Below are positions 2,903 through 38,394 of a stretch of DNA of 39,410 nt, in pieces. Origin of the DNA: an uncultured Actinomycetes bacterium (GTDB taxonomy: Bacteria; Actinomycetota; Thermoleophilia; Gaiellales; F1-60-MAGs149); assembly GCA_903873565.1 (NCBI GenBank), contig CAIQOY010000043.1, positions 1 to 39,410 of the forward strand, given 5' to 3'. Made by a program: the position numbers and the translations under genes. Each line of letters begins with the position of its first letter. The first letter of the stretch is position 1. The notes below the pieces were generated by a model that was not told the origin of the DNA, did not search any database, and saw only the letters and a list, made by a program, of their open reading frames with translations.

Positions 2903-3054
2903 GGCCGCGGCTCGCCGTCCCGCCCCTCGAGCTGGTCGAGCTGCCGCTCGAGCCGTCCGAGCTTGCGGCCGATGATGGCCACGTAGAGCAGGATCAGGAC
3001 CCAGACCGCGAGGTAGGCGGCGGCGACGTAGGGCACGGCGTCGCGGAGCGTCAC
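2899..3054 (-). CDS. ccmD: CcmD-like small membrane protein (51 aa, single TM plus charged tail)
   Basis: VTLRDAVPYVAAAYLAVWVLILLYVAIIGRKLGRLERQLDQLEGRDGEPRP. The GTG start overlaps the ccmC stop and its own stop overlaps the hemC start (GTGA on both sides). Position after ccmC and topology fit CcmD. The rest of the 254-aa track ORF is junk. Confidence 0.5.
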   Translation of the reverse strand: MTLRDAVPYVAAAYLAVWVLILLYVAIIGRKLGRLERQLDQLEGRDGEPRP

Positions 3055-3749: not shown

Positions 3750-3750
3750 G

Positions 3751-5051: not shown

Positions 5052-5094
5052 ACGGGGAGGGTAGGCGACCTGAGGTTGCGTACCCTTCCGCCCG

Positions 5095-7334: not shown

Positions 7335-7765
7335 GGCTTCAGGGCCTGCCAGCCGAGGTACCCGTAGGCGGCGAGCGCGACGGCCCAGCCGGCCACGGCC
7401 AGGAGGTCAGGCGCCGTGCCGGCGCAGCCGTAGCCGTCGCCCGCCGCGCAGAGGCCGTGGGCCAGCACGCCGAAGCCGCCGGCGAGCCCGGCGACGGCGA
7501 AGACGCCGAGCGCCAGCCAGGTCGGGGCGTGGTCGCGCGCGCCGCCCCTGACCGCGAGCGCGCCGGCGGAGACGATCAGGGCGCCGAGCAGCCCGAAGGC
7601 CGCGACGGACCACTGGCCGAGCGCCGTCTGCACGGCCAGGAGCAGGATCCCGGCGGGCAGGGCGACCCGCGCCAGCCGGGTGCCGCTGCCGCGGACCAGG
7701 AGCACGATCACGGCGATCACGACTCCCGCGAGGACGGCGGAGGCGATGGTGAACGCGAACTCCAC
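7331..7765 (-). CDS. Hypothetical integral membrane protein (about 4 TM, 144 aa)
   Basis: GTG at 7765 gives VEFAFTIASAVLAGVVIAVIVLL..., which is hydrophobic throughout. It is coupled to the kinase gene. The upstream part of the 212-aa track ORF runs into the tatA promoter region and looks non-coding. Confidence 0.55.
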   Translation of the reverse strand: MEFAFTIASAVLAGVVIAVIVLLVRGSGTRLARVALPAGILLLAVQTALGQWSVAAFGLLGALIVSAGALAVRGGARDHAPTWLALGVFAVAGLAGGFGVLAHGLCAAGDGYGCAGTAPDLLAVAGWAVALAAYGYLGWQALKP

Positions 7766-7847
7766 GGCGGCGTGAGCGTAGCCGCACCGCTCGGCCCCCG
7801 CGTTCCCGTTCGGTGGTAGCCTTCGCCGAGCAAGGAGGTCAATCCTT

Positions 7848-8156
7848 ATGCCTTTCGACTTCTCTCTCTGGCAGATCGGGATCGTGCTGGTCATCGGTCT
7901 GCTCGTGTTCGGCCCCAAGAAGCTCCCCGAGCTCGGTCGCGGCCTCGGCTCCGGCATGCGCGACTTCAAGCGCGGCCTGTCCGGCGAGCCCGACGAGGCG
8001 CCGGCGCAGCCCGTCGTGGTGCAGTCGACGACGCCGGTCGTCGAGACGGCCGCCGCCGCCCCGGCCGCCGAGCCCGTCGCCGCTGCGGCCCCCGCCGCGG
8101 AGCCGGCTGCGGCCGCCGCGGAGGCGCCGACGGCCGAGCCGAAGCCCGCGGAGTAG
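7848..8156 (+). CDS. tatA: Twin-arginine translocase subunit TatA/E
   Basis: MPFDFSLWQIGIVLVIGLLVFGPKKLPELGRGLGSGMRDFKRG is the canonical TatA TM plus amphipathic helix. There is a strong RBS (AAGGAGG) 7 nt upstream and an Ala/Pro/Glu-rich tail. Confidence 0.95.
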   Translation: MPFDFSLWQIGIVLVIGLLVFGPKKLPELGRGLGSGMRDFKRGLSGEPDEAPAQPVVVQSTTPVVETAAAAPAAEPVAAAAPAAEPAAAAAEAPTAEPKPAE

Positions 8157-8181
8157 GGCGCACGGCGAGGAGGCTGCGCTG

Positions 8182-8973
8182 ATGCTGGCCGGTATCCGCA
8201 ACGTCAAGCGCGTCGGGCACGACGAGGAGGTCCCGCTCACGGACCACCTCGAGGAGCTCCGCAACCGCGTCATCATCAGCCTGCTCGCGCTCGCGGTCGG
8301 CTTCATCCTCTGCTTCTGGCAGCACGAGCTGATCATCGAGTTCCTCAACCGGCCGCTGCCGGCGAGCGTCCCGGAGCCGATCGTCCTGAACGTCGCCGAG
8401 CCGTTCATGATCGCGCTCAAGGTGTCGATCGCGGGGGCGGTGATCCTGACCCTGCCGGTCCTGATCTACCAGCTCTATGCGTACGTGATGCCGGCCTTCG
8501 ACCCGGAGCACGAGCGCAGCACCTGGCCCTACCTGACGGCGGCCTCGCTGCTCTTCCTCGTCGGGCTCGCGTTCGGCTACTTCCTGATGCTGCCGGCCGC
8601 CACGAACTTCCTCGTCAACTTCGACGCGGACCTCTACAACCGCCAGGTGCAGGCCGGTGACTACTACGGCTTCGCGGTCTGGATCCTGATCGGCTGCGGC
8701 CTGATCTTCCAGATGCCGACGGGCGTGTTCCTGCTGTCGGCCGCCGGGCTGATGACGCCGCAGTGGATGCGCAAGAACCGCCGCTACGCGATCTTCGTGA
8801 TGGCGGTCGTGTCCGCCGCACTGCCGGGCGGCGACCCGCTGTCGATGCTGATCGCCCTGGCGGCCCTGCTCGTCCTGTGGGAGGTCTCGATCTTCATCTC
8901 GGCCTTCGTCCAGAAGCGCCGCGGCGAGCTCGAGGATGAGGGCGAGGGCCTCGAGCCCGTCGAGGACGTGTGA
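8182..8973 (+). CDS. tatC: Twin-arginine translocase subunit TatC
   Basis: ATG at 8182 preceded by GAGGAGG. LTDHLEELRNR N-terminal motif and a six-TM TatC pattern. The upstream 123 aa of the track ORF are out-of-frame junk across tatA. Confidence 0.93.
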   Translation: MLAGIRNVKRVGHDEEVPLTDHLEELRNRVIISLLALAVGFILCFWQHELIIEFLNRPLPASVPEPIVLNVAEPFMIALKVSIAGAVILTLPVLIYQLYAYVMPAFDPEHERSTWPYLTAASLLFLVGLAFGYFLMLPAATNFLVNFDADLYNRQVQAGDYYGFAVWILIGCGLIFQMPTGVFLLSAAGLMTPQWMRKNRRYAIFVMAVVSAALPGGDPLSMLIALAALLVLWEVSIFISAFVQKRRGELEDEGEGLEPVEDV

Positions 8974-10310
8974 CGCAGGTCTACGCCGCCGACCACGTGC
9001 TTCCGGTCGGCGCCGAGCCCATCCGAGGCGGTGCCGTCGCGGTCGCCGACGGCGTGATCGTCGCCGTCGGGCCCCGTGACCGGGTGCTCGCCGACCATCC
9101 CGGCGCGACCGTCGAGGACCTCGGCGCCGCCGCGCTGATGCCGGCGCTCGTCAACGCGCACACGCACCTCGAGTACGCGGCCTACGGCGGCTTCGGCGAC
9201 GGGCTGCCGTTCGCCGACTGGCTGGCCGACCACATCGCGCGGCGCCCCCGCCAGGCGCCGGGCGACGTCGAGGCCCAGGCCGCGCTCGGCGCGCTCCTGT
9301 GCCTGCAGTCGGGAGTCGGCACGATCGGCGACGCCTCCTACGCCGGGGCCTCGCTCGCCGCGGCCACGGAGGCGGGGCTGCGGGGCACCGTGCACCTCGA
9401 GGGGTTCGGCGGGCCCGACGCGGACCCGGCCGCCGTCGCCGCCGCCCTCGCCGGCCGCCTCGATGCGCTGGCGCCCGCGGCGACGGGCCTCGTCCGCCTC
9501 GGCGTCTCGCCGCACAGCCCGTACACCGCCGCCCCGGCCGTCTTCGCGGCGCTCGTCGCGCTGGCCCGGGAGCGGGGGATGACGGCGATGGCCCACGTCG
9601 CCGAGTCCGTCGCCGAGCTGGAGGCGGTCGCCGACGGCACGGGCCCGATCGCGGACGCCCTGGCGGCCCTGACCCGGATCGAGGCCACGGGCCGCCACCC
9701 CGTCGACCTGCTCGACGCCGCGGGCCTGCTCGGGCCCGGGCTGGTCCTCGTGCACGCCGTGCAGCTCGATGCCGGGCAGGCCCGTCGCGTCGGCGCCGCC
9801 GGCGCGCCGGTCGTGCACTGCCCCCGCTCGAACGCGCTGCTCGGCTGCGGCATCGCGCCCGTCCGCGCCCTCGCCGATGCGGGGGCCGTCCTCGCGATCG
9901 GCACCGACTCGCCGGCGTCCGCCGGCGACTTCGACCTCTGGGCCGAGCTGCGCGCCGCGGTCCAGCTCGCCCGCGCCCGCGAGGGACGGGCCGACGCGCT
10001 GACGGCGGCGGAGGCGCTGCGCATGGCCACCCTCGGCGGGGCCCGCGCCCTGGGGCTCGAGGGCGCCGTCGGGGCGCTCGCGCCGGGGCTGCGCGCCGAC
10101 CTCGTGGCGGTCGACCTCGCCGACGCGGCGTTCGACCCCGTCGAGGACCCCGCGGTGGCCGTGCTGATGGCCGGGTCACCGGAGCGGGTCCTCCTCACCA
10201 TCGTGGACGGCGTCCTGCGCTACCGTAGGAGCGCCGACGCCCAGCGCCTGGCCGCGGCGATCGCCGCGGCGGAGCCCGCGCGTCGGCGGATGATCGAGGA
10301 CCGAGACTGA
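8970..10310 (+). CDS. Amidohydrolase-superfamily deaminase/chlorohydrolase-type enzyme (MtaD / aminofutalosine-deaminase / guanine-deaminase-like)
   Basis: Metal ligand pattern NAHTHLE, SPHSPY, HVAES, VHAV, GTDS. The GTG start overlaps the tatC stop (GTGA). Confidence 0.8.
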   Translation: MTQVYAADHVLPVGAEPIRGGAVAVADGVIVAVGPRDRVLADHPGATVEDLGAAALMPALVNAHTHLEYAAYGGFGDGLPFADWLADHIARRPRQAPGDVEAQAALGALLCLQSGVGTIGDASYAGASLAAATEAGLRGTVHLEGFGGPDADPAAVAAALAGRLDALAPAATGLVRLGVSPHSPYTAAPAVFAALVALARERGMTAMAHVAESVAELEAVADGTGPIADALAALTRIEATGRHPVDLLDAAGLLGPGLVLVHAVQLDAGQARRVGAAGAPVVHCPRSNALLGCGIAPVRALADAGAVLAIGTDSPASAGDFDLWAELRAAVQLARAREGRADALTAAEALRMATLGGARALGLEGAVGALAPGLRADLVAVDLADAAFDPVEDPAVAVLMAGSPERVLLTIVDGVLRYRRSADAQRLAAAIAAAEPARRRMIEDRD

Positions 10311-11415: not shown

Positions 11416-12747
11416 ATGGGGAGATCGACCGCTCGTCGCCGTGCCGTCGCGGCCGGCCTGGCGCTCGTCGGCGCATTCGCGATCGCCGTCGGCGTGGCCT
11501 CGGCACCCGCCGCGCCCGTGGATCCCCGGCTGACGTGCAACCCCGACGGCGTGGAGCGCGCACCGTCCGTGACCGTCGTCGAGGCGGTCGTGAAGCCCGT
11601 GGGTGCCGCCGACTGGCAGGCGTGGCCCTCCACGGTCCTGATCTGCTCGTCCGAGTCCCAGGCCATCGGCCCCCTGCCGGCCGGCGCCGCGGTGCGGTTC
11701 CGGTACGTCAGCGAGGACGGGCAGCTGACCGGCAGTGACGTGCGGGCGGCCATGCCGCCCGGTACGCGCTACCGCCTCCGGCTGCAGACCTCCGCGTCGC
11801 TCGAGCCCATGACCAGCCTGTCGGGCTGGATCGCCAACCCGGAGTTCACGTTCTCGGGCCGTGACGTCACCATCGAGGGCGACGTGGTCGAGACCCTGAT
11901 CGCGGGATCCGGCGGCGATCCGAGCACCCGCCCCTGTCCCCCGGCGGGCACACAGGGGAACGTCTCCGTGGACCTCCTGCTGCGCCCGCGCGTGCTGGAG
12001 GTGCCCGGCACCGTCTACTACAACAGCGACGGCATCGTCTACGGCACGAACGCCTGGATGTACGGCCACCCCGCCATCAGCTCCGCGGGCCTGTTCTTCT
12101 CGATCACCGGCTGCGGTGACGCCGATCCGGCGACGAAGGAGGGCTTCGCCCACGGATTCCTCCCCGCCGCGCGCCTCGCGGAGATGGGCATCCCGCAGGC
12201 GGTGTTCGAGACCGCCCCGCCCGAGGCGATCGACGGCTTCCTGCAGATGCTCAACAACTCCGTGCCCGACGGGGGCGCCGTGTTCAGCCGCGTGACCCGC
12301 GGCGGCGTGATCGGCGCGGCCTTCGAGTACCGCACGAGCTACTCCGCCCACGACCTCGGGGTCCGGCCCGACGCGGACAACCTCAACGCGATCCGGGTCT
12401 GCGCCGCCCTCGGCAAGCCCGTGGCGTCGACGCCCGGCGCCGAGGGCCGGACGGTCGTGACCTGCTCGGCCAAGCTGCGCTACATCAAGCGCCCCGCCTG
12501 GGCCCTGAGCGGCAGCAAGGGCGCGAAGCGGCGGACGGCCACCCTCGAGTTCGCGGCGACGACCGGGGTGCGCTACCGGGTCTCCGCCGTCAGGGGCGCG
12601 ACGACCCGGACGGGGACCTGCGTCGTCAGGAAGGGCGCCGGCCGCTGCACGGTGCGCCTCGTCGGCAAGGGCCGGTGGGCGGTCGCGGTCACGCCGACGA
12701 AGGACGACCTCGTCGGCGAGGTGGTCCGTCGGTTCTTCACGCTCTGA
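11416..12747 (+). CDS. Secreted hypothetical protein (443 aa, Cys-rich, possible Tat signal)
   Basis: N-terminus MGRSTARRRAVAAGLALVGAFAIAVGVASA|PAAP, with an RRR n-region, a hydrophobic core and an AxA site. Ten Cys residues in the mature part. Basic beta-rich C-terminal roughly 90 aa. I recognise no family motif. Confidence 0.7.
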   Translation: MGRSTARRRAVAAGLALVGAFAIAVGVASAPAAPVDPRLTCNPDGVERAPSVTVVEAVVKPVGAADWQAWPSTVLICSSESQAIGPLPAGAAVRFRYVSEDGQLTGSDVRAAMPPGTRYRLRLQTSASLEPMTSLSGWIANPEFTFSGRDVTIEGDVVETLIAGSGGDPSTRPCPPAGTQGNVSVDLLLRPRVLEVPGTVYYNSDGIVYGTNAWMYGHPAISSAGLFFSITGCGDADPATKEGFAHGFLPAARLAEMGIPQAVFETAPPEAIDGFLQMLNNSVPDGGAVFSRVTRGGVIGAAFEYRTSYSAHDLGVRPDADNLNAIRVCAALGKPVASTPGAEGRTVVTCSAKLRYIKRPAWALSGSKGAKRRTATLEFAATTGVRYRVSAVRGATTRTGTCVVRKGAGRCTVRLVGKGRWAVAVTPTKDDLVGEVVRRFFTL

Positions 12748-19251: not shown

Positions 19252-20448
19252 TCACGCCGCGCGGGACGGCAGGCCGCGCTCGAGGCGCCGGCGCCCGAGC
19301 GGCAGCGCCGCAGCGGTGAACAGGAGCGCGGCGAGCGGGAACACGGCGAGGACGAGGTCGAAGTCGCCGGTCAGGTCGCGGACGCCGCCGAGCAGCGCGG
19401 GGGCGAGCGCCGTCAGCAGGTAGCCGCAGAACATCATCATCGCGGCCATCGCGCCCACGTCGAGCGGGTGCTCGGAGAGGTCGAGCGGCAGGCTCAGCGT
19501 GAGCGTGAACATCGCCCCGTTGGCGAGGCCCGCCAGCAGCATCCAGGCCGGGGCGCCCGCCGGGTGCAGGATCAGCAGCACCGTCGCGGTGGTCATCGCG
19601 GCCCCGCCGAGGACGAGCCCGCGGCGGCGCGAGAGGCGGTCGCCGATCACGCCGAGGGCGAGGCTGGAGGGGACGGTGCCGATGTTGTAGATCGCCGCCA
19701 GCCAGCCCGTCGCCGCGAGCGAGTAGCCCTGGTCGGCGTAGGCCGCCGGCAGCCACGCCGCGAGGCCGTAGTAGATGACGCCGAGCAGGCCGAACAGCGC
19801 CACCAGCAGCCACGCCGTGCCGCTGCGCAGCGGGAAGCGGGGCAGGCTCGCCGCCGGCCGCTCGTTCGGGGCGCGGCGCGTGCAGGCGATCCAGCCGATC
19901 AGGCAGGCGAGGGCGGCGAGGGAGATCGCGAACAGGGACGCCCGCCAGCCGGCGAAGGCCACGGCCAGCGGCACCGCCACCACCGCGGCCGCGGTCGAGC
20001 CGACCTGCATCCCGGTCGAGTAGATCGCCGTCACCAGCACGGGGCGCTCGGCGAAGCGCTGCTTGACGGCGACCACCATCAGGGTGTTGCCGATGCCCAT
20101 GCCGGCGCCGATCGCGAAGGTGAGGGCGAGCACGCCCTCGGCGCCCGGGACGGCGACCCGCGCGAGCCCGCCGATCGCGATCAGCGCGAGGGCCGCGGTG
20201 ACGGAGCGCAGCGCCCCGAAGCGCCCGGCGAGGAACGGCCCGAGCGGTGCGAAGACCGCCATGCAGAGCACCGGGATCGTGACCAGGAGGCCCGCCGTGG
20301 CGTACGAGATCCCGAGCGAGTCCCGGATCGTCGGGATCAGGGGCCCGACCGCGACGACCTGGGGCCGGAGCGTCAGCGACGCGAGCAGGAGCCCGGCGAG
20401 GAGCGGGGCGCGGCCGGCGAGGCGCGCGCCTCTCGGCGGCCGCGTCAT
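19252..20448 (-). CDS. MFS transporter, CynX/cyanate-permease-like family (paralog 1)
   Basis: 12-TM pattern. It aligns without gaps to the ORF at 37192-38394. The start is ATG 20448 or ATG 20493. Confidence 0.8.
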   Translation of the reverse strand: MTRPPRGARLAGRAPLLAGLLLASLTLRPQVVAVGPLIPTIRDSLGISYATAGLLVTIPVLCMAVFAPLGPFLAGRFGALRSVTAALALIAIGGLARVAVPGAEGVLALTFAIGAGMGIGNTLMVVAVKQRFAERPVLVTAIYSTGMQVGSTAAAVVAVPLAVAFAGWRASLFAISLAALACLIGWIACTRRAPNERPAASLPRFPLRSGTAWLLVALFGLLGVIYYGLAAWLPAAYADQGYSLAATGWLAAIYNIGTVPSSLALGVIGDRLSRRRGLVLGGAAMTTATVLLILHPAGAPAWMLLAGLANGAMFTLTLSLPLDLSEHPLDVGAMAAMMMFCGYLLTALAPALLGGVRDLTGDFDLVLAVFPLAALLFTAAALPLGRRRLERGLPSRAA

Positions 20449-20636
20449 CGGCCGCCGGTCGTGCCGACGCGGGTCACGGGGCGCCTGCCGCATGGTCAGG
20501 CGGGACCGCGGGGCCGGTCGGGACCTCCTCGCTCCGGATCGCGGTGTCCGTCATCAGGGGCTCCTCCCGTCGCCACGCCGCCGCTCGGCTGGCGGCAGCC
20601 TATCCGGGTGCGCGCCTCCGGCGGCGCGGTGGTGGA

Positions 20637-22187: not shown

Positions 22188-22805
22188 TCAGCCGATCGCC
22201 GCGATGACCTCGTCGGTCGTGGCGACCTCGGCGAGGTTGGGGATCGCGTACTCGAGGGCCGCCTTCTGCCACTCGTCGTCGATCGTCGAGGTGCCGTCGG
22301 AGACGACCACGACCTCGTAGCCGTTGTCGGCGCCCTGCCGGGTCGTCATCTCCACCGACATGTTGGTCCACGCGCCCGTGACGATGATCTTCTCGGCGCC
22401 GAGGCCGCGCAGCTTGATGTCGAGCGGCGTGTGCGAGAAGCCGCCCATGCGCTGCTTCTGGATCACGATGTCGCCGTCCTGCGGCTCGAGGCCCTCGACG
22501 GGCGCGGCGCCCCAGGAGCCGGCCTGCAGGGCGCCGACCTCGCGCACGCTGCGGTAGAGGCCGGCGTTCTGCTTCGAGTCGCGGTCGTGGCTCGAGCCCT
22601 GGTTGCCGAAGTGGTGGATGTGGACGACCTGGCCGCCCTTCTCGCGCATCGCGGCGGCCAGGCGCTTGACGTTCTCGACGACGTTCTGGCTCTTGGCGTG
22701 GGCGGGGGCGCCGGAGTCGGCGAAGGCGCCGCCCTCCATGATCACGTCGTTCTGCAGGTCGAGGATGATCAGCGCGGTCTTCGCGGGGTCGATCTTCGCG
22801 GGCAT
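22188..22805 (-). CDS. Isochorismatase-family hydrolase with Ser at the nucleophile position
   Basis: Asp in ALIILDLQND and Lys in VIQKQRMGGF are conserved. The G..T..C-V..T.R motif reads VTGAWTNMSVEMTTRQ, so Cys is replaced by Ser. Confidence 0.85.
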   Translation of the reverse strand: MPAKIDPAKTALIILDLQNDVIMEGGAFADSGAPAHAKSQNVVENVKRLAAAMREKGGQVVHIHHFGNQGSSHDRDSKQNAGLYRSVREVGALQAGSWGAAPVEGLEPQDGDIVIQKQRMGGFSHTPLDIKLRGLGAEKIIVTGAWTNMSVEMTTRQGADNGYEVVVVSDGTSTIDDEWQKAALEYAIPNLAEVATTDEVIAAIG

Positions 22806-29122: not shown

Positions 29123-30340
29123 ATGGCCACCGTCGTCCTGATCGGCACCCTCGACACGAAGGGCGCCGAGTACGGCTTCGTGCGCGAGCGCCTGCACGCG
29201 GCCGGCGTCGACACCGTCCTCGTCGACTGCGGCACCGCCGGCGCCCCCGTGATCGAGCCCGACGTCCCCGCGTCGGAGGTCGCGGCCGCGGTCGGCGCCG
29301 ACCTCGCCGCCCTGACCGCCGCCGGCGACCGCGGCGACGCGGTCACCACGATGGCGCGCGGGGCGGAGGCGGTCGCGCTGCGCCTGCACGCCGAGGGCCG
29401 TCTCGACGGCCTGCTGGCGATCGGCGGCTCGGGCGGCACCTCGATCGCCTCGGCGGCCGCGCGCGCCCTGCCGATCGGCGTCCCCAAGCTGATCGTCTCC
29501 ACGATGGCCGCCTCCGACACGCGCCCGATCATCGGCGAGAGCGACCTGATCCTCGCGGCCAGCGTCGTCGACGTCGCCGGCCTCAACTCCCTGTCGCGGC
29601 GGATCCTCGCCAACGCCGCCGCGGCGATGGCCGGGATGGTGTCGCAGCCGGCGCTGGAGCGGGGCGCGGACCGCCCGCTCATCGCCGCCTCGATGTTCGG
29701 GGTCACGACCCCGTCCGTCACGCAGGCGCGCGAGCAGCTCGAGGCGTCGGGCTTCGAGGTCCTCACCTTCCACATGACGGGCACCGGCGGGCGCTCGATG
29801 GAGTCCCTGATCGACGGCGGCTTCGTCGCGGGCGTCCTCGACGTCACCACCACCGAGCTCTGCGACGAGCTGGTCGGCGGCGTGCTGACGGCGGGCCCCG
29901 ACCGCCTGACCGCGGCGGGCCGGCGCGGGATCCCGCAGGCCGTCTCCCTCGGCGCCCTCGACATGGTCAACTTCGGGCCGCGCGAGACCGTGCCGGCCGC
30001 GTTCGACGACCGCACCCTCTACGTGCACAACGACCAGATCACGCTGATGCGCACCACGCCCGAGGAGTGCGCGGCGCTCGGCCGCGAGGTGGCGGCCAAG
30101 CTCAGCGCGGCGACGGGGCCGACCGCCCTGTTCGTGCCGCTCCGGGGCGTCTCGATGATCGCCGTCGAGGGCGGCCCGTTCCACGACGCGGCCGCCGACG
30201 AGGCGCTGTTCGCCGCGGTCCGCGAGGGCGTCGGCCCGAACGTGGAGCTGATCGAGCTCGACCTCGACGTCAACGACCCCGCCTTCTCGAAGGCGATGGC
30301 CGACTGGCTGGAGGCGAGGCTGCGGGAGGCCGGCGCGTGA
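29123..30340 (+). CDS. UPF0261 / Tm-1-like ATP-binding protein
   Basis: [19 protein letters not shown]-terminus, [17 protein letters not shown], and [11 protein letters not shown] are motifs I recognise from UPF0261. About 405 aa. Confidence 0.8.
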
Positions 30341-31164
30341 ACCGCGCGGAGGCCCTCGAGCGCCTCAACGCGACGCGCGCCACGGGCCGCGCGATCATCG
30401 GCGCCGGCGCGGGCACCGGCCTGTCGGCCAAGTGCGCGGAGCTGGGCGGCGTCGACCTGATCATCATCTACAACTCGGGCCGCTTCCGGATGGCGGGCCG
30501 CGGGTCGCTGTCCGGCCTGATGCCCTACGGCGACGCCAACGCGATCGTCGTCGACATGGCCCGCGAGGTGCTGCCGATCGTGCGCGACGTGCCGGTCCTG
30601 GCCGGCGTCTGCGGCACCGATCCCTTCCGGATGATGGACCGCTTCATCCCGGAGCTCGGGCGGATCGGCTTCTCCGGCGTCCAGAACTTCCCCACGGTCG
30701 GCCTGATCGACGGCGTCTTCCGCCAGAACCTCGAGGAGACCGACATGGGCTACGCCCTCGAGGTCGAGGCGATCCGGATCGCGCGCCAGCACGACCTCCT
30801 GACCGCGCCCTACGTCTTCGACGTGGCGTCGGCCGTGGCGATGGCCGAGGCCGGGGCGGACGTGCTCGTGCCGCACATGGGCCTGACCACGAAGGGCTCG
30901 ATCGGCGCCCACACCGCGCGCACCCTCGAGGACTGCGTGCCGCTGATCCAGCAGATGCGGGACGCGGCGGTGGCCGTCAACCCGGACGTGATCGTGCTCT
31001 GCCACGGCGGGCCGATCGCCGAGCCGGAGGACGCCGCCTTCATCTTCGAGCGCACGACGGGGATCGACGGCTTCTTCGGGGCCTCCTCGATGGAGCGCCT
31101 GCCGACCGAGGTCGCGATGACCGAGAACATGCGCCGCTTCAAGGCGCTGGAGATCCGAGGCTAG
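30337..31164 (+). CDS. PEP-hydrolase-like TIM-barrel protein (PF09370-type, the Tm-1 C-terminal-domain homolog)
   Basis: The GTG start overlaps the UPF0261 stop (GTGA). [62 protein letters not shown] motifs. Confidence 0.78.
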
Positions 31165-31173
31165 GAGGAGAGC

Positions 31174-31575
31174 ATGGCCAGCAGGTTCATCATGCACAGC
31201 GAGGTGCCCGTCACGGAGTTCGACTGGGGCAGCGCCGGGATGCGCTGCTCGAAGGACAACACGGGCTGCCAGACGTTCGTCGTCCTGGACGTCGTGCTCG
31301 CGCCCGGCGCGTGCCACGACTTCCACAAGCACCCCGACCAGGACGAGATGATCATCGTCAAGCAGGGGTCGATCACGCAGCACATCGAGGGCGAGTCCTG
31401 CACGCTCAACGCGGGCGACTCCGTCTACCTCGACAAGGACGTCGTCCACGGGTCGTTCAACGACGGCAGCGAGGACGCGCACCTGCAGGTCGTGCTCGCC
31501 CCCGCCATGGGCGAGGGCGGCTACGAGCTCGTCGACGTCTCGGGCGACGAGCCCTGGGCGTCGATGCGCGCCTGA
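31174..31575 (+). CDS. Cupin-domain protein
   Basis: Cupin motif 1 FHKHPDQDEMIIVKQG and motif 2 GDSVYLDKDVVHGSFN. RBS GGAGGAGAG. Confidence 0.8.
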   Translation: MASRFIMHSEVPVTEFDWGSAGMRCSKDNTGCQTFVVLDVVLAPGACHDFHKHPDQDEMIIVKQGSITQHIEGESCTLNAGDSVYLDKDVVHGSFNDGSEDAHLQVVLAPAMGEGGYELVDVSGDEPWASMRA

Positions 31576-31589
31576 CCCGGATCGGCGAT

Positions 31590-31625
31590 GGGGCCCGGTC
31601 GGACCGCGCGGTCCGGCCGGGCCCC
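31590..31625. terminator. 36-nt near-perfect palindrome, bidirectional terminator between convergent cupin genes
   Basis: GGGGCCCGGTCGGACCGC|GCGGTCCGGCCGGGCCCC. All positions pair except one G-U wobble. Confidence 0.6.
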
Positions 31626-31635
31626 GCGCACGCCG

Positions 31636-32028
31636 CTAGCGCTCGACGTGGCCCGCGCCGCCCTGGTCGCCCAGGACGAGGTCGCGCTCGCGGTCGGGCA
31701 CGTGGTCGAGCGGGACGGGGGCGAGGCCCTCGATGAACGTGACCCCGGTCTCGGAGATGAGCTCGTGCTCGAGGCCGCGGTTGATGCAGACGACGTCGCC
31801 CGCACGCACGGTGCGGGTCTCATCCTCGACGGTGATGGTGACCTCGCCGTCGAGGATCACCATCAGCTGCTCGGTCTCGTCGTGGGAGTGGCGCGGCACG
31901 GTCTTGCCGGGCTCGTAGGTGACGCGGCAGAGCAGCATCTGGTCGCCGCCGAACGCGTTCAGGCGCACGCCGGGGAAGAGCTCGAGCGGCTCCTGGCCGT
32001 TCCAGGTCCCGAAGGGGGAGTCGGCCAT
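31636..32028 (-). CDS. Cupin-domain protein
   Basis: ATG at 32028, 3 nt after the upstream stop. Cupin motifs PRHSHDETEQLMVILDG and GDVVCINRGLEHELI. Confidence 0.8.
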   Translation of the reverse strand: MADSPFGTWNGQEPLELFPGVRLNAFGGDQMLLCRVTYEPGKTVPRHSHDETEQLMVILDGEVTITVEDETRTVRAGDVVCINRGLEHELISETGVTFIEGLAPVPLDHVPDRERDLVLGDQGGAGHVER

Positions 32029-32030
32029 CC

Positions 32031-33137
32031 CTACGGGGCGAACAGGACCGCGCTGTCGGCGGAGGCGACCGCGTTGATCGAGAGCTCCTCGTCGTAGCGG
32101 ATGTACTTGCCGTCCGTCCGCGACTCGGGCCTGCCCTCCTCCTTGGCGCGCAGGGCGCGCAGGACCTTCTCGGGCGTGATCGGCATCTCGGTCACCCACA
32201 CGCCGACCGCGTCGTAGATCGCGGTGGCGATCGCCGGCGGCTGGGCGTTGTTGGCCATCTCGCCGATCGACTTGGCCCCGAACGGGCCGTCGGACGACGG
32301 GTTCTCGATGATGATGCACTCGAGCTCGGGGAGCTCCTCCATCGAGGGCACGAAGTACGAGCCGTAGCCGGAGCCGCGGTGGTCGGGGCTCGGGTAGTAC
32401 GGGTACACCGTCTCGAGCAGGCCGAGCCCGAGGCCCTGCATGGCCCCGCCCTCGATCTGGCCCTCGACCATCGTCGGGTTGATCGCGCGGCCGACGTCGT
32501 AGACCTGCGACATCTTGAGCACGCGGACGTCGCCCGTCTCCGTGTCCACCTCGACCTCGGCGGCGCAGGCCGCGTACGAGATCGCCGAGTGCGGCGGCAC
32601 CGTGACGGCCCCCGTCTCGGGGTCGAGGGTGGCGTACTCCTTGAGGGCGGTGCCCTGGCCGGAGATCAGCTCGCCCTTCACGAAGGTGGCGAAGCCGGCG
32701 ATGTCGCCCATCCCGACCTTCTTGTCGGGGGAGCCCTTGACGTGCACCTCGCCGTCGGCGATCTCGAGGTCGCCGGCGTCCACCTCGAGCAGCTCGCCGC
32801 CGATCTCGAGGATGCGCGAGCGCACCTTCTCGGCCGCGAGGCGCACGGCGTTGCCGCCGATGAACGTGCCGCGCGAGGCGAACGTGCCCATGCAGAACGC
32901 GGACGAGTCCGTGTTCGAGGTGTCCATCGTGACCCAGTCCATCGGCACGCCGATGGCGTCGGCGACGATCTGGGAGTGGACCGTCTTGGAGCCCTGGCCG
33001 ATGTCGACGGTGCCGGCGAAGACGTCCACGCGGCCGTCCATCTTGAGCTTGATCCAGGCCTGCGACGGGTCGCCGTTCTGGTTCATGCCCGTCGGGTACT
33101 CGATCGCCGCGATCCCGCGGCCGACTGCCTTGGCCAT
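32031..33137 (-). CDS. Molybdenum hydroxylase (xanthine dehydrogenase/aldehyde oxidase family), C-terminal Moco-binding subunit (NdhM-like, 368 aa)
   Basis: Starts MAKAVGRGIA. VDIGQGSKT and FGAKSIGEMAN (active-site Glu region) motifs. The ATG shares its A with the TGA of the upstream subunit gene (TGATG). The first 424 aa of the 792-aa track ORF are out-of-frame junk. Confidence 0.85.
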   Translation of the reverse strand: MAKAVGRGIAAIEYPTGMNQNGDPSQAWIKLKMDGRVDVFAGTVDIGQGSKTVHSQIVADAIGVPMDWVTMDTSNTDSSAFCMGTFASRGTFIGGNAVRLAAEKVRSRILEIGGELLEVDAGDLEIADGEVHVKGSPDKKVGMGDIAGFATFVKGELISGQGTALKEYATLDPETGAVTVPPHSAISYAACAAEVEVDTETGDVRVLKMSQVYDVGRAINPTMVEGQIEGGAMQGLGLGLLETVYPYYPSPDHRGSGYGSYFVPSMEELPELECIIIENPSSDGPFGAKSIGEMANNAQPPAIATAIYDAVGVWVTEMPITPEKVLRALRAKEEGRPESRTDGKYIRYDEELSINAVASADSAVLFAP

Positions 33138-34507
33138 CAGTGGTCCTCCGGGTTGCCGAGCTGGCCCACGAGGTGCTCGGGCAGGTCGTCGCCCGAGCGC
33201 ATCGCGGCGGTCATGGTGCGGTAGTCGGCCGGCAGCTCGTGGCCGGTCGCCTCCGCGATCGCCTTGACGACCGGGACGGTCGAGGGGTCGGTGTAGACGA
33301 CGCCGTTCGGCGAGGTGTCGCCGAGCCGGTTCGCGTTCTTGAGCCGGAACTCGAGCGGGTCCATGCCGATCGCGCGCGCGCAGCGCTCGATGTGGATCTC
33401 CGTCGCGAACGAGACGCTGGTCACGCCGAATCCCCGCATGGCGGTCGACGGGACCCGGTTCGTGTAGACGACGTACCCGTTGAACTCGAGGTTCGGGATC
33501 GTGTACGCGCCCGTGTGGTGGAAGGAGTGCTTGGTGACGCCGTACGGCGAGAAGCGCGAGTACGCGCCCGCGTCGTGCAGGGTCAGCATCTTGCGGCCGA
33601 GGATCCAGCCGTCCTTCGTGATCGCGTCGGCGACCTCCATGTGCCAGCCGGCGCGGGTCGACGAGCAGAGGAACTCCTCCTCGCGGGTCCAGCGCCAGCG
33701 CACGGGGCGCTGGGCCTTGACGGCGAGGAGGACCGTGATCGTCTCGGAGGCCGTGTCGACCTTGCCGCCGAAGCCGGAGCCGGTCGTGCCGCCGATGAAC
33801 TTGAGCCGGTTGAGCGGCCAGTCCAGGTGCGCGGCGACGACGCCCATCGAGAAGTACATCGCCTGCGTGGCCGAGTAGACCGTGTAGCGGCCGTCGGCCT
33901 CGGGCACGACCTGCGTGACCTGGGTCTCCATCGGCACGTGCTCCATCGGGTACGGCCGGTAGACGCCCGTCACGATGTGGTCCGCCTGCTCGAAGGCCCA
34001 GTCGACGTCGCCCTTGCGGATCTGGCGGCGGTCCATCTGGCCCTCGAAGTCGGGGTACCAGTTCTGGTTGTCGTGCGCCTGCGGGGCGTTCGGCTCGAAC
34101 GCCCTGCGGATGTCGAAGAGCGGCTCGAGCTCCCTGTAGGTGACCTCGATCGCCTCGGTCGCGCGCAGGGCGGTCGCCTCGTCGACGGCCGCCACGGCGG
34201 CGATCGGCTGGCCGAGGTAGCGGACGTGCGTCGCGGCGAGCAGCGGCTCGTCGCCGGGGACGCCGAGCCCCTCGATGTGGCCGTGGACGTTCTTGTGGAC
34301 GTCCGCGTGGGTGACGACGGCGAACACGCCCTCCATCGCCTCGGCCTTCGAGGTGTCGATCGAGAGGATCTCCGCGTTGTGGTGCGGCGAGCGCAGCGCC
34401 TTCGCCCACAGCGTCCCCGGGATGCGCACGTCGTCGACGTAGCGGGTCCCGGCGGTGACGTGGGCGCCGGCGTCGTAGCGCGGCAGCCGCTGGCCGACGA
34501 CCTTCAC
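33137..34507 (-). CDS. Molybdenum hydroxylase, N-terminal Moco-binding subunit (NdhL-like, 456 aa)
   Basis: VGQRLPRYDAGAHVTAGTRYVDD a/b-hammerhead N-terminus, GGTTGSGFGGK, STAMRGFG motifs. The GTG start overlaps the stop of the 2Fe-2S subunit gene (GTGA). Confidence 0.85.
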   Translation of the reverse strand: MKVVGQRLPRYDAGAHVTAGTRYVDDVRIPGTLWAKALRSPHHNAEILSIDTSKAEAMEGVFAVVTHADVHKNVHGHIEGLGVPGDEPLLAATHVRYLGQPIAAVAAVDEATALRATEAIEVTYRELEPLFDIRRAFEPNAPQAHDNQNWYPDFEGQMDRRQIRKGDVDWAFEQADHIVTGVYRPYPMEHVPMETQVTQVVPEADGRYTVYSATQAMYFSMGVVAAHLDWPLNRLKFIGGTTGSGFGGKVDTASETITVLLAVKAQRPVRWRWTREEEFLCSSTRAGWHMEVADAITKDGWILGRKMLTLHDAGAYSRFSPYGVTKHSFHHTGAYTIPNLEFNGYVVYTNRVPSTAMRGFGVTSVSFATEIHIERCARAIGMDPLEFRLKNANRLGDTSPNGVVYTDPSTVPVVKAIAEATGHELPADYRTMTAAMRSGDDLPEHLVGQLGNPEDH

Positions 34508-35025
34508 CGCTCCACCCCCTTGATGGTCGTGTTGGCGCCGACGGCGGTCTCCTCGAGGTCGAAGGTCTCGCCGCGGGCGGCGGCCTGGACGGCCGCGATG
34601 ATCTTGACGTAGCCGGTGCAGCGGCAGGCGTGCCCGCCGAGCGCCTCGACGATCGCGTCGCGGTCGTCGGTCCCGCCCTGCTCGAGGTAGGCCGTGGCGG
34701 CCATCAGGAAGCCGCTGGCGCAGAACCCGCACTGGGCGGCGTAGTGGTGGATCCAGGCCTGCTGGAGCGGCGTCAGCTCGCCGCCGGCGGGGGCGAGGCC
34801 CTCGACGGTGCGGATCGCGGTGCCGCGCGCGGCCTCGACGGGCATCAGGCAGGAGCGGCGCGCCTCGCCGTCGACGATGACGGTGCAGGCGCCGCAGCCG
34901 CCGTGCTGGCAGGAGGCCTTGGGGCTGGTGATCGAGAGATCCTCCCGCAGCACGTGCAGGAGCGGCGTGAGGGGCTCGGCCTCCACGACCTGGGCCGTGC
35001 CGTTGACGGTGAACTCGATGCTCAT
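34504..35025 (-). CDS. (2Fe-2S)-binding small subunit of the molybdenum hydroxylase
   Basis: CQHGGCGACTV...C (plant-type cluster) plus QCGFCASG...CRCTGY (second cluster). The ATG overlaps the stop of the FAD-subunit gene (ATGA). Confidence 0.92.
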   Translation of the reverse strand: MSIEFTVNGTAQVVEAEPLTPLLHVLREDLSITSPKASCQHGGCGACTVIVDGEARRSCLMPVEAARGTAIRTVEGLAPAGGELTPLQQAWIHHYAAQCGFCASGFLMAATAYLEQGGTDDRDAIVEALGGHACRCTGYVKIIAAVQAAARGETFDLEETAVGANTTIKGVER

Positions 35026-35801
35026 GCGGCCTCCCGGAGCTGCTCGAGCGCGCGGCGGACGAGGATGGGCAGGGTCTGCTCGCGGTACCAGGCGGAGGCG
35101 ACCGCGTCGTCGGCGAGCTGGACGTCGGCGAGCGCCGCCCGCCCGGCGGCCTCGGGGTCGTCGGCCTTCGCCTCGGCCGAGGGGAGGCGCAGCCCGTGCG
35201 GGCCGGCGCCGGTCGCGGCGAGGCGGATGCCGTCCGCGCCGCGGACGGCGCTGACCGCGAGGGCCGTGTACTCGTGCGTGTGCTGGCGGTCGAGGTAGGC
35301 GTAGGCGCCGGGCGCCTCGTCGTACGCGACGTCGAGGACCAGCCGGCCGGCCCGCTGCGCCAGGAAGTCCTCGACGGGCTCGGTGCGCTCGCCGCCCTTG
35401 CCGGCGGAGCGGACGTGCGCCCCGAGGGCGATCATCACGCCCTGCAGGTCGCCGCGCGGCGCCTCGAAGTTGGCGGCGCAGAGGTTGCCGCCGACGGTGG
35501 CCTGGCGGCGCACCTCGCCGTCGGCGATGTGCGCGACGCACGACGCGACCGGGTCGGGCAGGCCCGCGAGCTCCGCCAGCGGCGTGCCGGCGCCGATCGT
35601 GACGCGGCCCCCGTCGCGGGCGATGCCGCCGAGGCCGGCGCGGTGGAGCATCAGCGCGGTGGCCGGGCGCTCGAAGCCGAGCTGGATGTTGGGGACGACG
35701 ATCGTGCCGCCCCCGACGACGAGCGTGCCGTCGCCGTCGCCGAACATCTCCACGGCCTCAGCCGGGGACGTCGGGATCAGTACTGCTGGTCCGTGAGCCA
35801 T
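35022..35801 (-). CDS. FAD-binding subunit of the molybdenum hydroxylase (CoxM/XdhB-like)
   Basis: LVVGGGTIVVPN FAD motif, RRQATVGGNL. 259 aa. RBS GGGAGA. Confidence 0.85.
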   Translation of the reverse strand: MAHGPAVLIPTSPAEAVEMFGDGDGTLVVGGGTIVVPNIQLGFERPATALMLHRAGLGGIARDGGRVTIGAGTPLAELAGLPDPVASCVAHIADGEVRRQATVGGNLCAANFEAPRGDLQGVMIALGAHVRSAGKGGERTEPVEDFLAQRAGRLVLDVAYDEAPGAYAYLDRQHTHEYTALAVSAVRGADGIRLAATGAGPHGLRLPSAEAKADDPEAAGRAALADVQLADDAVASAWYREQTLPILVRRALEQLREAA

Positions 35802-35819
35802 TCTCCCTACCCATGTCCG

Positions 35820-35837
35820 GCGGGGCTCGCGCCCCGC
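35820..35837 (-). other. GC-rich stem-loop between gntR and the hydroxylase operon (possible terminator/attenuator)
   Basis: GCGGGGC-TCGC-GCCCCGC in the 67-nt gap. Confidence 0.4.
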
Positions 35838-35868
35838 TCCTCCTCACCGCACAGGCGGCAGGGGCAGA

Positions 35869-36624
35869 CTACGGATTGGACTGACCACTTTCAAGTCGGG
35901 CGCGCGCCTCGATGGCCCGCTGGAGCCAGCGGCGGATGTCCTCGAGGTGCTCGCGCATGGCCTGCCCCGCGACCGCGGGGTCGCCCGTCTCGATCGCCGC
36001 GATGATGTCCTCGTGGGCCTCGAGCGTGCGGTCGAGGATGTCCTCGCCCTCCATGATCCGCTCGCGCAGGCTGGCCCCGAGGTGCCAGACCGAGTCGATC
36101 AGCTCGAGCAGGAGCGCGTTGCCGGCCAGCTCGTGGATCGCGCGGTGGAACTTGCGGTCCGCCGCGAGGTTCGCGATGCCGTCCTGGTCGCGGGTGATCC
36201 CCGCGGCGAGGCGGCGCAGGCGCTGCACGTCGCGCTTGGTGGCGCGCTGCGCCGCGAGCTCGGCGGCGCCCACCTCGAGCATGCCGCGCACGTCCATCAG
36301 CTGGCTGGCCGAGGTCGCGTTGCGCTCCACCGCGAAGATCAGCGGCGTGGCGAGGCGCTCGGTGGAGAGGTCGGTGACGTAGGTGCCGGAGCCCTGCCGC
36401 GCGGTCAGGACGCCCATCGACGACAGCGTCCGGATCGCCTCGCGCACGGTGGAGCGCGACACGTTGAGCTGGACGGCGAGGTCCCGCTCGACCGGGAGCC
36501 GGTCGCCGGGGCGCAGGCCGAGGCGCTCGATCATCTCGAGCAGGAGGTCGGCCGTCGCGGTGCCCGTGGCGCCGCGCGGGGCGGCCGGCGCGGTGGGACG
36601 GGTGCTGCGCGTGGACGGCGGCAT
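35869..36624 (-). CDS. GntR-family transcriptional regulator, FadR subfamily (FCD effector domain)
   Basis: HTH region ERDLAVQLNVSRSTVREAIRTLSSMGVLTARQGSGTYV. All-helical C-terminal domain with FHRAIHELAGN. ATG at 36624. Confidence 0.9.
   Translation of the reverse strand: MPPSTRSTRPTAPAAPRGATGTATADLLLEMIERLGLRPGDRLPVERDLAVQLNVSRSTVREAIRTLSSMGVLTARQGSGTYVTDLSTERLATPLIFAVERNATSASQLMDVRGMLEVGAAELAAQRATKRDVQRLRRLAAGITRDQDGIANLAADRKFHRAIHELAGNALLLELIDSVWHLGASLRERIMEGEDILDRTLEAHEDIIAAIETGDPAVAGQAMREHLEDIRRWLQRAIEARARLESGQSNP
35877..35887. promoter_or_regulatory. Imperfect operator-like copy (TGGACTGACCA; one mismatch to the palindrome)
   Basis: Lies in the last codons of gntR, about 75 nt upstream of the FAD-subunit start. 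Confidence 0.3.
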
Positions 36625-36629
36625 CGGCG

Positions 36630-37112
36630 TCAGCGGGCGCCCTGCTCGAGCGCGTCGAGGAAGAGCGAGGCGCGCAGGTTCCACTCGGACTGGGGGAACG
36701 CCTCCTCGAGCCGGCGCAGCGGCACCTTCGCCTGGTCGACGCCGGTGACGTCGCGGCAGACCAGTTCGATCAGGTTGCCGCCCGGGTCGACCAGGTACAT
36801 CTGGCCGGCGCCGTCCGGCAGGAGGTTCGCCGCCGCGAAGCCCGGCACCTCGACCAGGCAGCCCCGGCGGACCGCCTCGACGAACAGCTCCTCGAAGTTG
36901 TCGACCTCGAGGCCGAGATGGTGGCGGCTGGTCGGCGGCTCGCCCTCGGGGAACAGGTGGACCTGGCGCTGGCCGGCGCGCAGCCACTCCGTGCGCACGC
37001 CGAAGTTCGGTCCGGGGATGTGCTCCATGCCGAGGAAGTCGACGTAGAACGCGAGGGACTCGTCGAAGTCCTTGACGGAGATGCTGACGTGGTTGAGGTC
37101 GGTGACGCCCAT
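36630..37112 (-). CDS. VOC-family (glyoxalase/bleomycin-resistance/dioxygenase) protein
   Basis: LNHVSISVKDFDESLAFYVDFLGME and HHLGLEV metal-ligand pattern. 160 aa. Confidence 0.85.
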   Translation of the reverse strand: MGVTDLNHVSISVKDFDESLAFYVDFLGMEHIPGPNFGVRTEWLRAGQRQVHLFPEGEPPTSRHHLGLEVDNFEELFVEAVRRGCLVEVPGFAAANLLPDGAGQMYLVDPGGNLIELVCRDVTGVDQAKVPLRRLEEAFPQSEWNLRASLFLDALEQGAR

Positions 37113-37191: not shown

Positions 37192-38394
37192 CTAGCCCGA
37201 CCGGTCGCGGACCCCGCGGCGCAGGCGCGCCGCGGACAGGGTCGACGCGCACGCCGCGATCGCCAGGGCGCCGATGGGGAAGGTCAGCAGCACGAGGTCG
37301 AAGTTCCCGGTCAGATCGCGCAGGGCGCCGAGCAGGGTCGGCGCGAGCGCGGTCACGATGTAGCCGATGAAGAGCATCATCCCGGCGACGGCGCCGACGT
37401 CCACGGGGTGGTCGGCGACGTCGAGGGGCAGGCTCATCGAGATCGTGAACATCGCCCCGTTGGCGAGGCCGGCGAAGATGATCCACGCGCCGGCGCCACC
37501 GGGGGCGAGGGCCAGGAGCAGGGAGGAGACGGCCATCGTCGAGGCGGCGATCAGCATCCCGCGCCGGCGCGAGACCCGCGCCCCGGCGATCCCGACCGCG
37601 ATCGCCGCGGGCACGGTGGCGATGTTGAAGGCGGCGGCCAGCCAGCCGGTGGTCGCCTGCGACCAGCCGAGCTCGACGTAGGCGGCGGGGAGCCACGCGG
37701 TCAGGCCGTAGTAGATGATCCCCATCACGCTGAACATCGCCACGAACACCCAGGCGATGCCGCTGCGCAGCGGGAAGCGCGGGAACACCCCGGGCGGGCG
37801 GGCGCGGGGCGCGGAGCGGGCCATCAGCGCCCAGCCCGCCAGCGACACGACGGCGGCGAGCGAGAACGCCAGCAGGGTGAAGCGCCAGCCGTCCAGCCAG
37901 ACGGCGAGGGGCACGGCGAGGACGGCGGCCAGCGAGGATCCGAGCTGGATGGCCGCGGTGTAGACGCTGGTCAGGAGCAGCGGGTGGTCGGCGAAGCGCT
38001 CCTTGACCGCGACCACCATCAGGGCGTTGCCGAGGCCCATCCCGGCGCCCACGATGAAGGTCAGCGCCAGCAGGCTGACCGCGCCCGGGGCGACGACGCG
38101 CAGGAGGCCCGCGATGGCGATCAGCGCCACGGCGACGGTGACGGCGCGGACGGCGCCGACGCGGCCGGCCAGGACCGGGGCGATCGGCGCGAAGACGCCC
38201 ATGCAGAGCAGGGGGATCGTGAGCAGGAGGCCCGCGACCGCGTGCGAGATGCCGAGGGAGGCCTGGATGTCGGGGAGGAGCGGCCCGAGCCCCACGATCT
38301 GCGGGCGCAGGGTCAGCGCGGCCAGCGAGAGGCCGATCAGGAGCGGCATCCGCTCGCCGATGCGGGCGGGCGCGTCCGCGGCGAGGTGGCCCAC
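37192..38394 (-). CDS. MFS transporter, CynX/cyanate-permease-like family (paralog 2)
   Basis: Colinear, gapless similarity to 19252-20448 (for example LTLRPQ, SLGIS, GLANGAMFT, LRDLTG.FDLVL). The start is 4 nt after the upstream stop. Confidence 0.8.
   Translation of the reverse strand: MGHLAADAPARIGERMPLLIGLSLAALTLRPQIVGLGPLLPDIQASLGISHAVAGLLLTIPLLCMGVFAPIAPVLAGRVGAVRAVTVAVALIAIAGLLRVVAPGAVSLLALTFIVGAGMGLGNALMVVAVKERFADHPLLLTSVYTAAIQLGSSLAAVLAVPLAVWLDGWRFTLLAFSLAAVVSLAGWALMARSAPRARPPGVFPRFPLRSGIAWVFVAMFSVMGIIYYGLTAWLPAAYVELGWSQATTGWLAAAFNIATVPAAIAVGIAGARVSRRRGMLIAASTMAVSSLLLALAPGGAGAWIIFAGLANGAMFTISMSLPLDVADHPVDVGAVAGMMLFIGYIVTALAPTLLGALRDLTGNFDLVLLTFPIGALAIAACASTLSAARLRRGVRDRSG

Follow-up and report, generated by a model that had tools for sequence, protein, structure and literature searches.

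A predicted molybdenum hydroxylase with a split cofactor subunit and a coupled cupin in uncultured Thermoleophilia

The stretch of DNA analysed here (the window, 39,410 nucleotides, contig CAIQOY010000043.1 of an uncultured Actinomycetes bacterium of the class Thermoleophilia) carries on its minus strand four consecutive open reading frames (ORFs), located at 32031-35801 from the ORF list and the sequence, which encode the FAD-binding subunit (F), the iron-sulfur subunit (S) and the N-terminal (L) and C-terminal (M) halves of the molybdenum cofactor (Moco) subunit of a hydroxylase. The best explanation overall, in which we have good confidence, is that these genes and the cupin gene after them make up one operon of five translationally coupled genes (F, S, L, M, cupin), and that its product is a molybdenum hydroxylase of the xanthine oxidase family located in the cytoplasm, with a Moco subunit of ~800 amino acids (aa) that is made as two polypeptides and an N-heterocycle as the favoured substrate. 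It is almost certain that the split is genuine, and that this is a four-subunit enzyme with its Moco subunit on two coupled genes. What is new here is the cupin as a fifth gene, and the lactonase and the RutB/biuret-hydrolase-like amidase that are often found alongside the operon.

A Moco subunit encoded by two coupled genes

The operon has the following parts:

35022..35801, minus strand: FAD-binding subunit (F), 259 aa; PF00941, E=1.7e-22
34504..35025, minus strand: 2x[2Fe-2S] subunit (S), 173 aa; PF00111 and PF01799
33137..34507, minus strand: N-terminal molybdopterin-binding half (L), 456 aa, GTG start; PF01315 and PF02738
32031..33137, minus strand: C-terminal molybdopterin-binding half (M), 368 aa, ATG start; PF20256 only
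33133..33157, minus strand: L/M junction, GGAGGA Shine-Dalgarno within the 3' end of L, followed by TGATG; read from the sequence
31636..32028, minus strand: monocupin, 130 aa, fifth gene of the operon; PF07883

The composition of the window is ~72% GC, and real genes were recognised in it by the GC content at the third codon position (GC3). This is 0.97-1.00 in all four frames and 1.00 in both Moco halves and, given the composition of the genome, F, S, L and M are therefore real coding sequence. The gene order, the lengths of the proteins and the ATGA, GTGA and TGATG junctions listed in a first-pass annotation of this DNA were each read from the sequence and stand as listed. F and S overlap by ATGA (GCATGAGC) and S and L by GTGA (CGGTGAAG, with GGGGGTGGAG just before it), and at the L/M junction (GGAGGACCACTGATGGCC) the stop and the start share one base in TGATG, with the GGAGGA Shine-Dalgarno lying 6 nt upstream of the ATG of M, within the end of L. 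A promoter and terminator scan of 31400-36700 found none. The Pfam domains are FAD_binding_5 on F, Fer2 and Fer2_2 on S, Ald_Xan_dh_C and MoCoBD_1 on L, and MoCoBD_2 alone on M, with the matches to Ald_Xan_dh_C, MoCoBD_1 and MoCoBD_2 all far over the Pfam cut-offs. Given that PF02738 ends on L and that PF20256 stands alone on M, the break falls exactly at the boundary between MoCoBD_1 and MoCoBD_2.

The motifs that define the xanthine oxidase family are the AxRGxG loop, GFGGK, a Gln and a Glu (PMC8305194). L carries GSGFGGK (GFGGK at 245-249) and AMRGFG (356-361), and its Gln215, the GFGGK with the Val250 that follows it and the AMRGFG are invariant in 57 L subunits of the family. M carries Glu293, at the general-base position, within GAKSIGE. 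The location of these motifs on L and M confirms that the split lies, as previously annotated, between a GSGFGGK/MRGFG half and a GAKSIGE half. F retains its two glycine motifs, GGG at residue 30 and TVGG at residue 102, and in S both cluster motifs are intact (C39-x4-C44-x2-C47-x11-C59 and C99-x2-C102-x31-C134-x-C136), with all eight [2Fe-2S] cysteines in canonical spacing. By its domains and motifs, the predicted enzyme belongs to the xanthine oxidase/molybdenum hydroxylase family.

The same arrangement was found in independent sequences. No fewer than 12 studies of lakes, drinking water and other aquatic habitats yielded metagenomes with the window sequence, and the metagenome contigs of four runs, from four studies, that were aligned to 32000-35850 contain substitutions only, with zero indels. 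A single contig of 7063 nt spans the whole of this interval with 4 substitutions and 0 gaps, and position 33137 is crossed by shorter contigs from the other three runs. Three NCBI assemblies of metagenome-assembled genomes (MAGs) encode a 98%-identical M; in two of them the full gene series of 259/173/456/368/130 aa lies on the contig, and the contig of the third starts within L, with the L/M junction, M and the cupin the same.

The split is also conserved across the family. The best 120 homologues of M drawn from a collection of 5.8 billion proteins, which go from 98% down to 68% identity, all have 364-374 aa and MoCoBD_2 only. A species-level scan, with one genome per GTDB species, gave 480 genomes that encode a relative, and the locus counts given here refer to the best 80, all of them from MAGs of Thermoleophilia (Gaiellales, Gaiellaceae, Solirubrobacteraceae) or of unclassified Actinomycetota. 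L is always closed by a stop codon, and L and M are separate in all 80 loci. A single base is shared by the L stop and the M start (TGATG or TAATG) in 60-65 of 75-80 related loci, and most of the remaining ones have a gap of 0-3 nt. One metatranscriptome has contigs that cross the L/M and S/L junctions, which is compatible with co-transcription, DNA carry-over being possible. A frameshifted pseudogene, or an assembly or sequencing error, of a single large-subunit gene has in its favour just the prior expectation that most members of the family are fused, and was rejected as practically nil in probability, given the independent contigs free of indels, the identical structure in three MAG assemblies, the split in all 80 loci and all 120 homologues, the Shine-Dalgarno that precedes the M start and the GC3 of 1.00 in both halves. 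The view of the first-pass annotation that this is a genuine enzyme with no frameshift is thus upheld by every relative examined, and by contigs of four runs across the L/M junction (~33137).

The coupled cupin and the neighbouring genes

The first-pass annotation had given the locus as 32031-35801, which holds the four subunits but leaves outside a fifth coupled gene, that of the cupin (31636-32028). In the window this gene begins 2 nt after the stop of M, as read at the junction. A cupin lies directly downstream of M in 77 of the 80 loci, and in 52 of the 53 that have full flanks (at least 9 kb on both sides of the operon), and in 42 of 58 loci the two genes share 1-14 nt. With 60-87% identity its conservation is on par with that of L and M; F and S reach just 45-70%. 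Because the cupin is kept with M in the loci of the family, the conserved unit is F-S-L-M-cupin, and the cupin is probably coupled to the enzyme in function as well. It is missing in the split relatives of 44-46% identity whose contexts were viewed. Given that the split architecture is already a known type, the cupin partner is the sole distinctive feature of the system.

His47, His49, Glu53 and His88 of the cupin, which make up a classical cupin metal site, are invariant, as is its C-terminal PVPLDH..PD motif. The AlphaFold (AF2) model has a predicted local distance difference test (pLDDT) score of 84, and its nearest folds are Sthe2323, CelOCE (cellulose-oxidising), KdgF and TM1459. The fold search thus returned generic small monocupins of unknown or diverse function, and the model would not allow a function to be assigned.

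M has a C-terminal tail of ~35 aa (residues 334-368; 32031-32135), in which Gly343, Asp349, Glu350 and Ser353 are invariant and Phe366 is nearly so. This tail is missing in NdhM, the corresponding subunit of the nicotinate dehydrogenase of Eubacterium barkeri, and in the split relatives of 44-46% identity (331-341 aa). The tail occurs together with the cupin gene downstream, and may serve for docking.

Two apparent fusions were seen, each in a single case that may be a frameshift artefact. In P0128 (479 aa), which is not trusted, an M subunit appears fused to a cupin segment, and in P0238 (646 aa) a FAD domain appears fused to an M-type domain. If real, P0128 would be Rosetta-stone evidence for an interaction between M and the cupin. 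A second, unrelated cupin of 133 aa (31174-31575, plus strand) converges on the cupin of the operon, and no terminator-like hairpin was detected in the 60 nt between the two stop codons.

Three genes around the operon are referred to below:

35869..36624, minus strand: GntR/FCD regulator, candidate local regulator, 67 nt upstream of the operon; PF00392 and PF07729
22815-23714, minus strand: SMP-30/gluconolactonase-like hydrolase; Pfam
22188-22805, minus strand: isochorismatase-family amidohydrolase; Pfam

In the window and its closest freshwater relatives, epimerase, CynX-type MFS, VOC and GntR/FCD genes precede the operon on the same strand. On the other side lie the second cupin, a PEP-hydrolase-like/UPF0261 pair and a Liv-type ABC transporter, and beyond these SMP-30/gluconolactonase-like, isochorismatase-family, RidA and ABM genes. 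The GntR/FCD regulator is syntenic only in loci L001-L005 and the 98%-identical MAGs. In the Gaiellaceae from soil the operon is flanked by divergent genes for a CoxD-like AAA and a CoxE-like VWA protein, with the SMP-30-like/isochorismatase pair next to these; genes for NIPSNAP, short-chain dehydrogenases/reductases (SDRs), an aldehyde dehydrogenase, a B12 diol dehydratase and an FAH hydrolase are present too. The SMP-30-like/isochorismatase pair lies no more than 10 kb from the operon in 29 of the 53 full-flank loci, in three arrangements and, the cupin aside, it alone stays linked across all three. The structures nearest to the isochorismatase-family amidohydrolase are those of biuret hydrolase, RutB and triuret hydrolase, and a RidA gene comes after it in the window, just as RutC comes after RutB. 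No equivalog-level assignment was obtained with NCBIfam for the neighbouring genes.

Other features of the loci were also recorded. The UPF0261 gene (405 aa) and the overlapping gene for a PEP-hydrolase-like TIM barrel (275 aa) that follows it, at 29123-31164 on the plus strand, are a two-gene form of the plant Tm-1-like fusion, and outside the closest freshwater clade (L001-L008) this pair does not adjoin the Moco operon. MarK, which phosphorylates phenolic aromatics with ATP, is the one UPF0261 protein that has been characterised (PMC12624787). The window also encodes two MFS_1 transporters of comparable length on its minus strand within the same 20 kb, at 19252-20493 (413 aa) and at 37192-38394 (400 aa), the latter being of the CynX/NimT type and part of the same-strand gene string that leads into the Moco operon. 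In 44 of the 80 loci the genes of a B12-type diol/glycerol dehydratase are found 2-6 kb away from the operon (for example L027:13477-15756 and L055:17239-17652), with large and medium subunits fused (759 aa) and the small subunit separate. In a divergent cluster beside the operon of a Gaiellaceae-type genome (L081:1-1715), a thiamine-diphosphate enzyme with TPP_enzyme N/M/C domains is fused to a RidA domain. A MAG titled 'Bifidobacterium breve' (L005, CAMDVX010000031.1) holds an 85%-identical, fully syntenic copy of this locus, which is high in GC and belongs to Thermoleophilia, and this bin is evidently mislabelled. Further away in the window, a housekeeping block at 561-10310 contains genes for a CobA/HemD fusion, HemC, CcmB- and CcmC-like proteins, a PfkB kinase, TatA, TatC and an amidohydrolase, with a histidine/phenylalanine ammonia-lyase-family gene inside it (5095-6522). 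An ORF of 443 aa (11416-12747, plus strand) has high GC3 and no Pfam match, and its N-terminus (MGRSTARRRAVAAGLALVGAF...) resembles a twin-arginine translocation (Tat) or signal peptide.

Proposed reaction and substrate

In the proposed mechanism, the Moco subunit is interrupted in the linker that runs at the surface from MoCoBD_1 to MoCoBD_2, and L and M would assemble round one molybdopterin cofactor, probably, from what is known of the family, the cytosine dinucleotide form. L would contribute Gln215, the pterin-stacking motif GFGGK and the active-site loop AMRGFG, and M the general base Glu293, which would deprotonate Mo-OH. With a Moco site formed by residues of both, the active site would be placed at the L/M interface. 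The one-base overlap of stop and start and the internal GGAGGA would give coupled, equimolar synthesis of L and M. Mo-OH would attack the substrate carbon (C-H), with transfer of hydride to Mo=S, or possibly Se, and the two electrons would leave Mo by way of the two [2Fe-2S] clusters of S, reach the FAD of F and go on to a further acceptor. The His/His/Glu/His cupin is proposed to act on the substrate or the product of the enzyme. If the substrate is an N-heterocycle, the frequently linked lactonase-like and RutB/biuret-hydrolase-like enzymes would go on to open the oxidised ring and remove its amide.

For the substrate, a non-purine N-heterocycle is the class that we tentatively favour, with a confidence slightly below even. 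It is favoured because of the linkage to the amidohydrolase and RidA genes, and because L and M are closer to heterocycle and aromatic enzymes than to aldehyde enzymes: their highest scores are those with NdhLM, PucD, E. coli XdhA and HcrA, and the scores with PaoC, MOP and glyceraldehyde dehydrogenase are lower. The N-heterocycle hydroxylase proposed in the first-pass annotation is thus retained as the favoured class, and is still something that we infer. Several points weigh against this reading of the operon. No NCBIfam equivalog reaches its cut-off for the operon proteins. SDRs, aldehyde dehydrogenase, B12 diol dehydratase, FAH-family hydrolase and lactonase are common neighbours, which fit a metabolism of sugar acids, diols or aldehydes, and KdgF is among the nearest characterised folds of the cupin. 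All 80 loci come from one bacterial class, and shared ancestry may explain some of the synteny. The sole fusion of M and cupin that was seen, P0128, may be an artefact.

Some of these points are what would be expected of an aldehyde oxidoreductase, in which the four subunits oxidise an aldehyde derived from a sugar or a diol to the acid, and a KdgF-like cupin opens or tautomerises a cyclic precursor. This is the main rival of the N-heterocycle, and less likely than it. The genes near the operon encode SDRs in 57, aldehyde dehydrogenase in 49, B12 diol dehydratase in 44 and FAH hydrolase in 34 of the 80 loci, along with an SMP-30 lactonase and an epimerase; besides the structural likeness of the cupin to KdgF, one homologue is named 'unsaturated pyranuronate lyase' by its source, and the top NCBIfam match of the FAD subunit is glyceraldehyde dehydrogenase beta. 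However, the lower scores of L and M against PaoC, MOP and glyceraldehyde dehydrogenase than against the heterocycle and aromatic enzymes speak against it, the wider set of neighbours is lost from the window's own clade, and the RutB/biuret-hydrolase-like amidase and RidA point to nitrogen-containing intermediates.

The N-heterocycle reading can be carried further, to a version that we consider improbable. In this version the cupin would be a stoichiometric fifth component docked on the family-specific C-terminal tail of M, taking the hydroxylated product straight from the Mo site in a Moco-hydroxylase/cupin metabolon, which together with the lactonase-like, RutB/biuret-hydrolase-like and RidA enzymes would constitute a new route of oxidation for a small N-heterocycle of the pyrimidine or pyridone kind in the abundant Thermoleophilia of soil and freshwater. 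The family is present in 480 or more species-level genomes of a class that is almost uncultured and plentiful in soils and lakes, and knowing the substrate would close a gap in the picture of carbon and nitrogen metabolism in Thermoleophilia.

Relation to known molybdenum hydroxylases

The best matches in the PDB are the two halves of the Moco subunit of nicotinate dehydrogenase (NdhFSLM) of E. barkeri: 3HRD_A (NdhL) for L (E=2e-60, 34% identity) and 3HRD_B (NdhM) for M (E=6e-53, 35% identity). L 3-406 aligns with NdhL 7-399 and M 4-333 with NdhM 3-329 and, given that both alignments run end to end, the two enzymes are cut at a homologous linker. The next-best structures after Ndh are 4-hydroxybenzoyl-CoA reductase, and then MOP, CoxL, Qor and Kdh. 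A wider search with M covered 15 billion proteins, with each 50%-identity cluster represented by one sequence, and the window family is a single cluster there. The next cluster matches are split M-type proteins of 331-341 aa with 44-46% identity, interspersed with fused proteins of 750-790 aa with ~41% identity, both at 250-300 bits versus 183 bits for NdhM. Among the 121 matches that cover most of the M query, 33 are split, 59 fused and 29 truncated. The split state is thus common and phylogenetically scattered, with about one third of the nearest clusters split. The first-pass annotation had named NdhFSLM as the characterised precedent for the split; the arrangement is not rare, given that it is fixed in this family and that at least two of these split clusters also have the F-S-L-M order. 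A literature search on split Moco subunits and on ndhFSLM in metagenomes found nothing relevant to the split.

In a neighbour-joining (NJ) tree the window family groups in a set of 13 clusters, all split. This group is exactly recovered in 36% of 200 bootstraps, and the tree is too weakly resolved for the question of a single origin. The smallest outgroup-free clade that holds the group has a median of 15 members, with NdhM inside in 17.5% of the replicates. With split forms scattered among fused ones, there is ample natural sequence material in the family to address why, and how many times, the Moco subunit has been split.

Compared with NdhFSLM, the operon of the window has the same four subunits in the same F-S-L-M order, the Moco subunit cut in the same linker between MoCoBD_1 and MoCoBD_2, and the AxRGFG loop, the Gln and the catalytic Glu on M in common. 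The split and the F-S-L-M order, which the first-pass annotation gave as the likeness to NdhFSLM, thus stand. In addition, IMG labels one related cluster 'nicotinate dehydrogenase medium molybdopterin subunit'. A true orthologue, converting nicotinate to 6-hydroxynicotinate, is nonetheless quite improbable. The identity is only 34-35%, fused proteins (P0129 with 260 bits and P0133 with 254 bits) outscore NdhM against M, and NdhM falls in the clade of the window in few of the NJ bootstraps. The FAD subunit is not NdhF-like: the FAD chain of 3HRD is not among its PDB matches at E<=1e-5, and its nearest solved structures are KdhM and CutM. M has the family-invariant N-terminal loop IEYPTGMNQNGDPSQ where NdhM has WYGIGNTGLPNPAAA, and it has the extra C-terminal tail, with ~30 extra aa in L. 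A cupin is coupled downstream, and the host is of an aerobic-type lineage of Actinomycetota. As already noted in the first-pass annotation, the window lacks the nicotinate fermentation genes of E. barkeri. Those of the aerobic Nic pathway are missing too, and a Pfam search of the window gave no B12 mutase, enamidase-cluster, dimethylmalate lyase or NicCDEFX-type genes. The enzyme is thus built like NdhFSLM and presumably works like it, and its specific kinship with nicotinate dehydrogenase is weak.

The uncharacterised split operons of other phyla (P0125-P0139, for example a Synergistales 'aldehyde oxidase' of 335 aa) are closer, with 44-46% identity to M, and group with the window family in the NJ tree. 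The same split and F-S-L-M order are seen in P0126 and P0136, the two members of the group that were viewed in context. They differ from the window family in that they have no downstream cupin and no C-terminal tail on M (331-341 aa), and some of them adjoin XdhC, MocA or Moco-biosynthesis genes.

With the CoxSML-type aerobic CO dehydrogenases the operon shares the FAD, FeS and Moco modules, and maturation genes of the CoxD-like AAA and CoxE-like VWA types adjoin many members of the window family (46 and 41 of the 80 loci, respectively). Homologues are also named 'CO/xanthine dehydrogenase Mo-binding subunit' by their sources. However, the active-site loop is AMRGFG, which has no Cys and is of the kind of the AFRGFG of xanthine dehydrogenase (XDH) and NDH, not the AYRCSF(R) of form I CO dehydrogenase (PMC8305194). 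CoxL is moreover unsplit and less similar, its structures ranking under NdhLM and HcrA, and the window itself has no CoxD or CoxE. The loop of form II CoxL is AYRGAGR. A CO dehydrogenase of form I or form II was rejected on the loop and is very improbable. By their sequences, the members of the family are distinct, intact and split, and lack the CO dehydrogenase loop. Such genes, routinely labelled 'CO/xanthine dehydrogenase Mo-binding subunit' in MAGs of Gaiellales and Solirubrobacterales, could be miscounted as markers of CO oxidation or flagged as broken.

A purine XDH was also rejected. The position after GFGGK corresponds to Glu802 of bovine XDH, needed for purine binding, and in L it is occupied by the invariant Val250; the pucD, XdhA and xdhB models score 104-303 bits versus cut-offs of 780-916, with the best, pucD, at 303 versus 784. 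HcrABC (PDB 1RM6) and the bacterial xanthine dehydrogenases of the PucCDE and XdhABC types are the next-best matches of both halves and have the same three cofactor modules as the operon of the window, from which they differ in that their Moco subunit is a single chain of ~760 aa.

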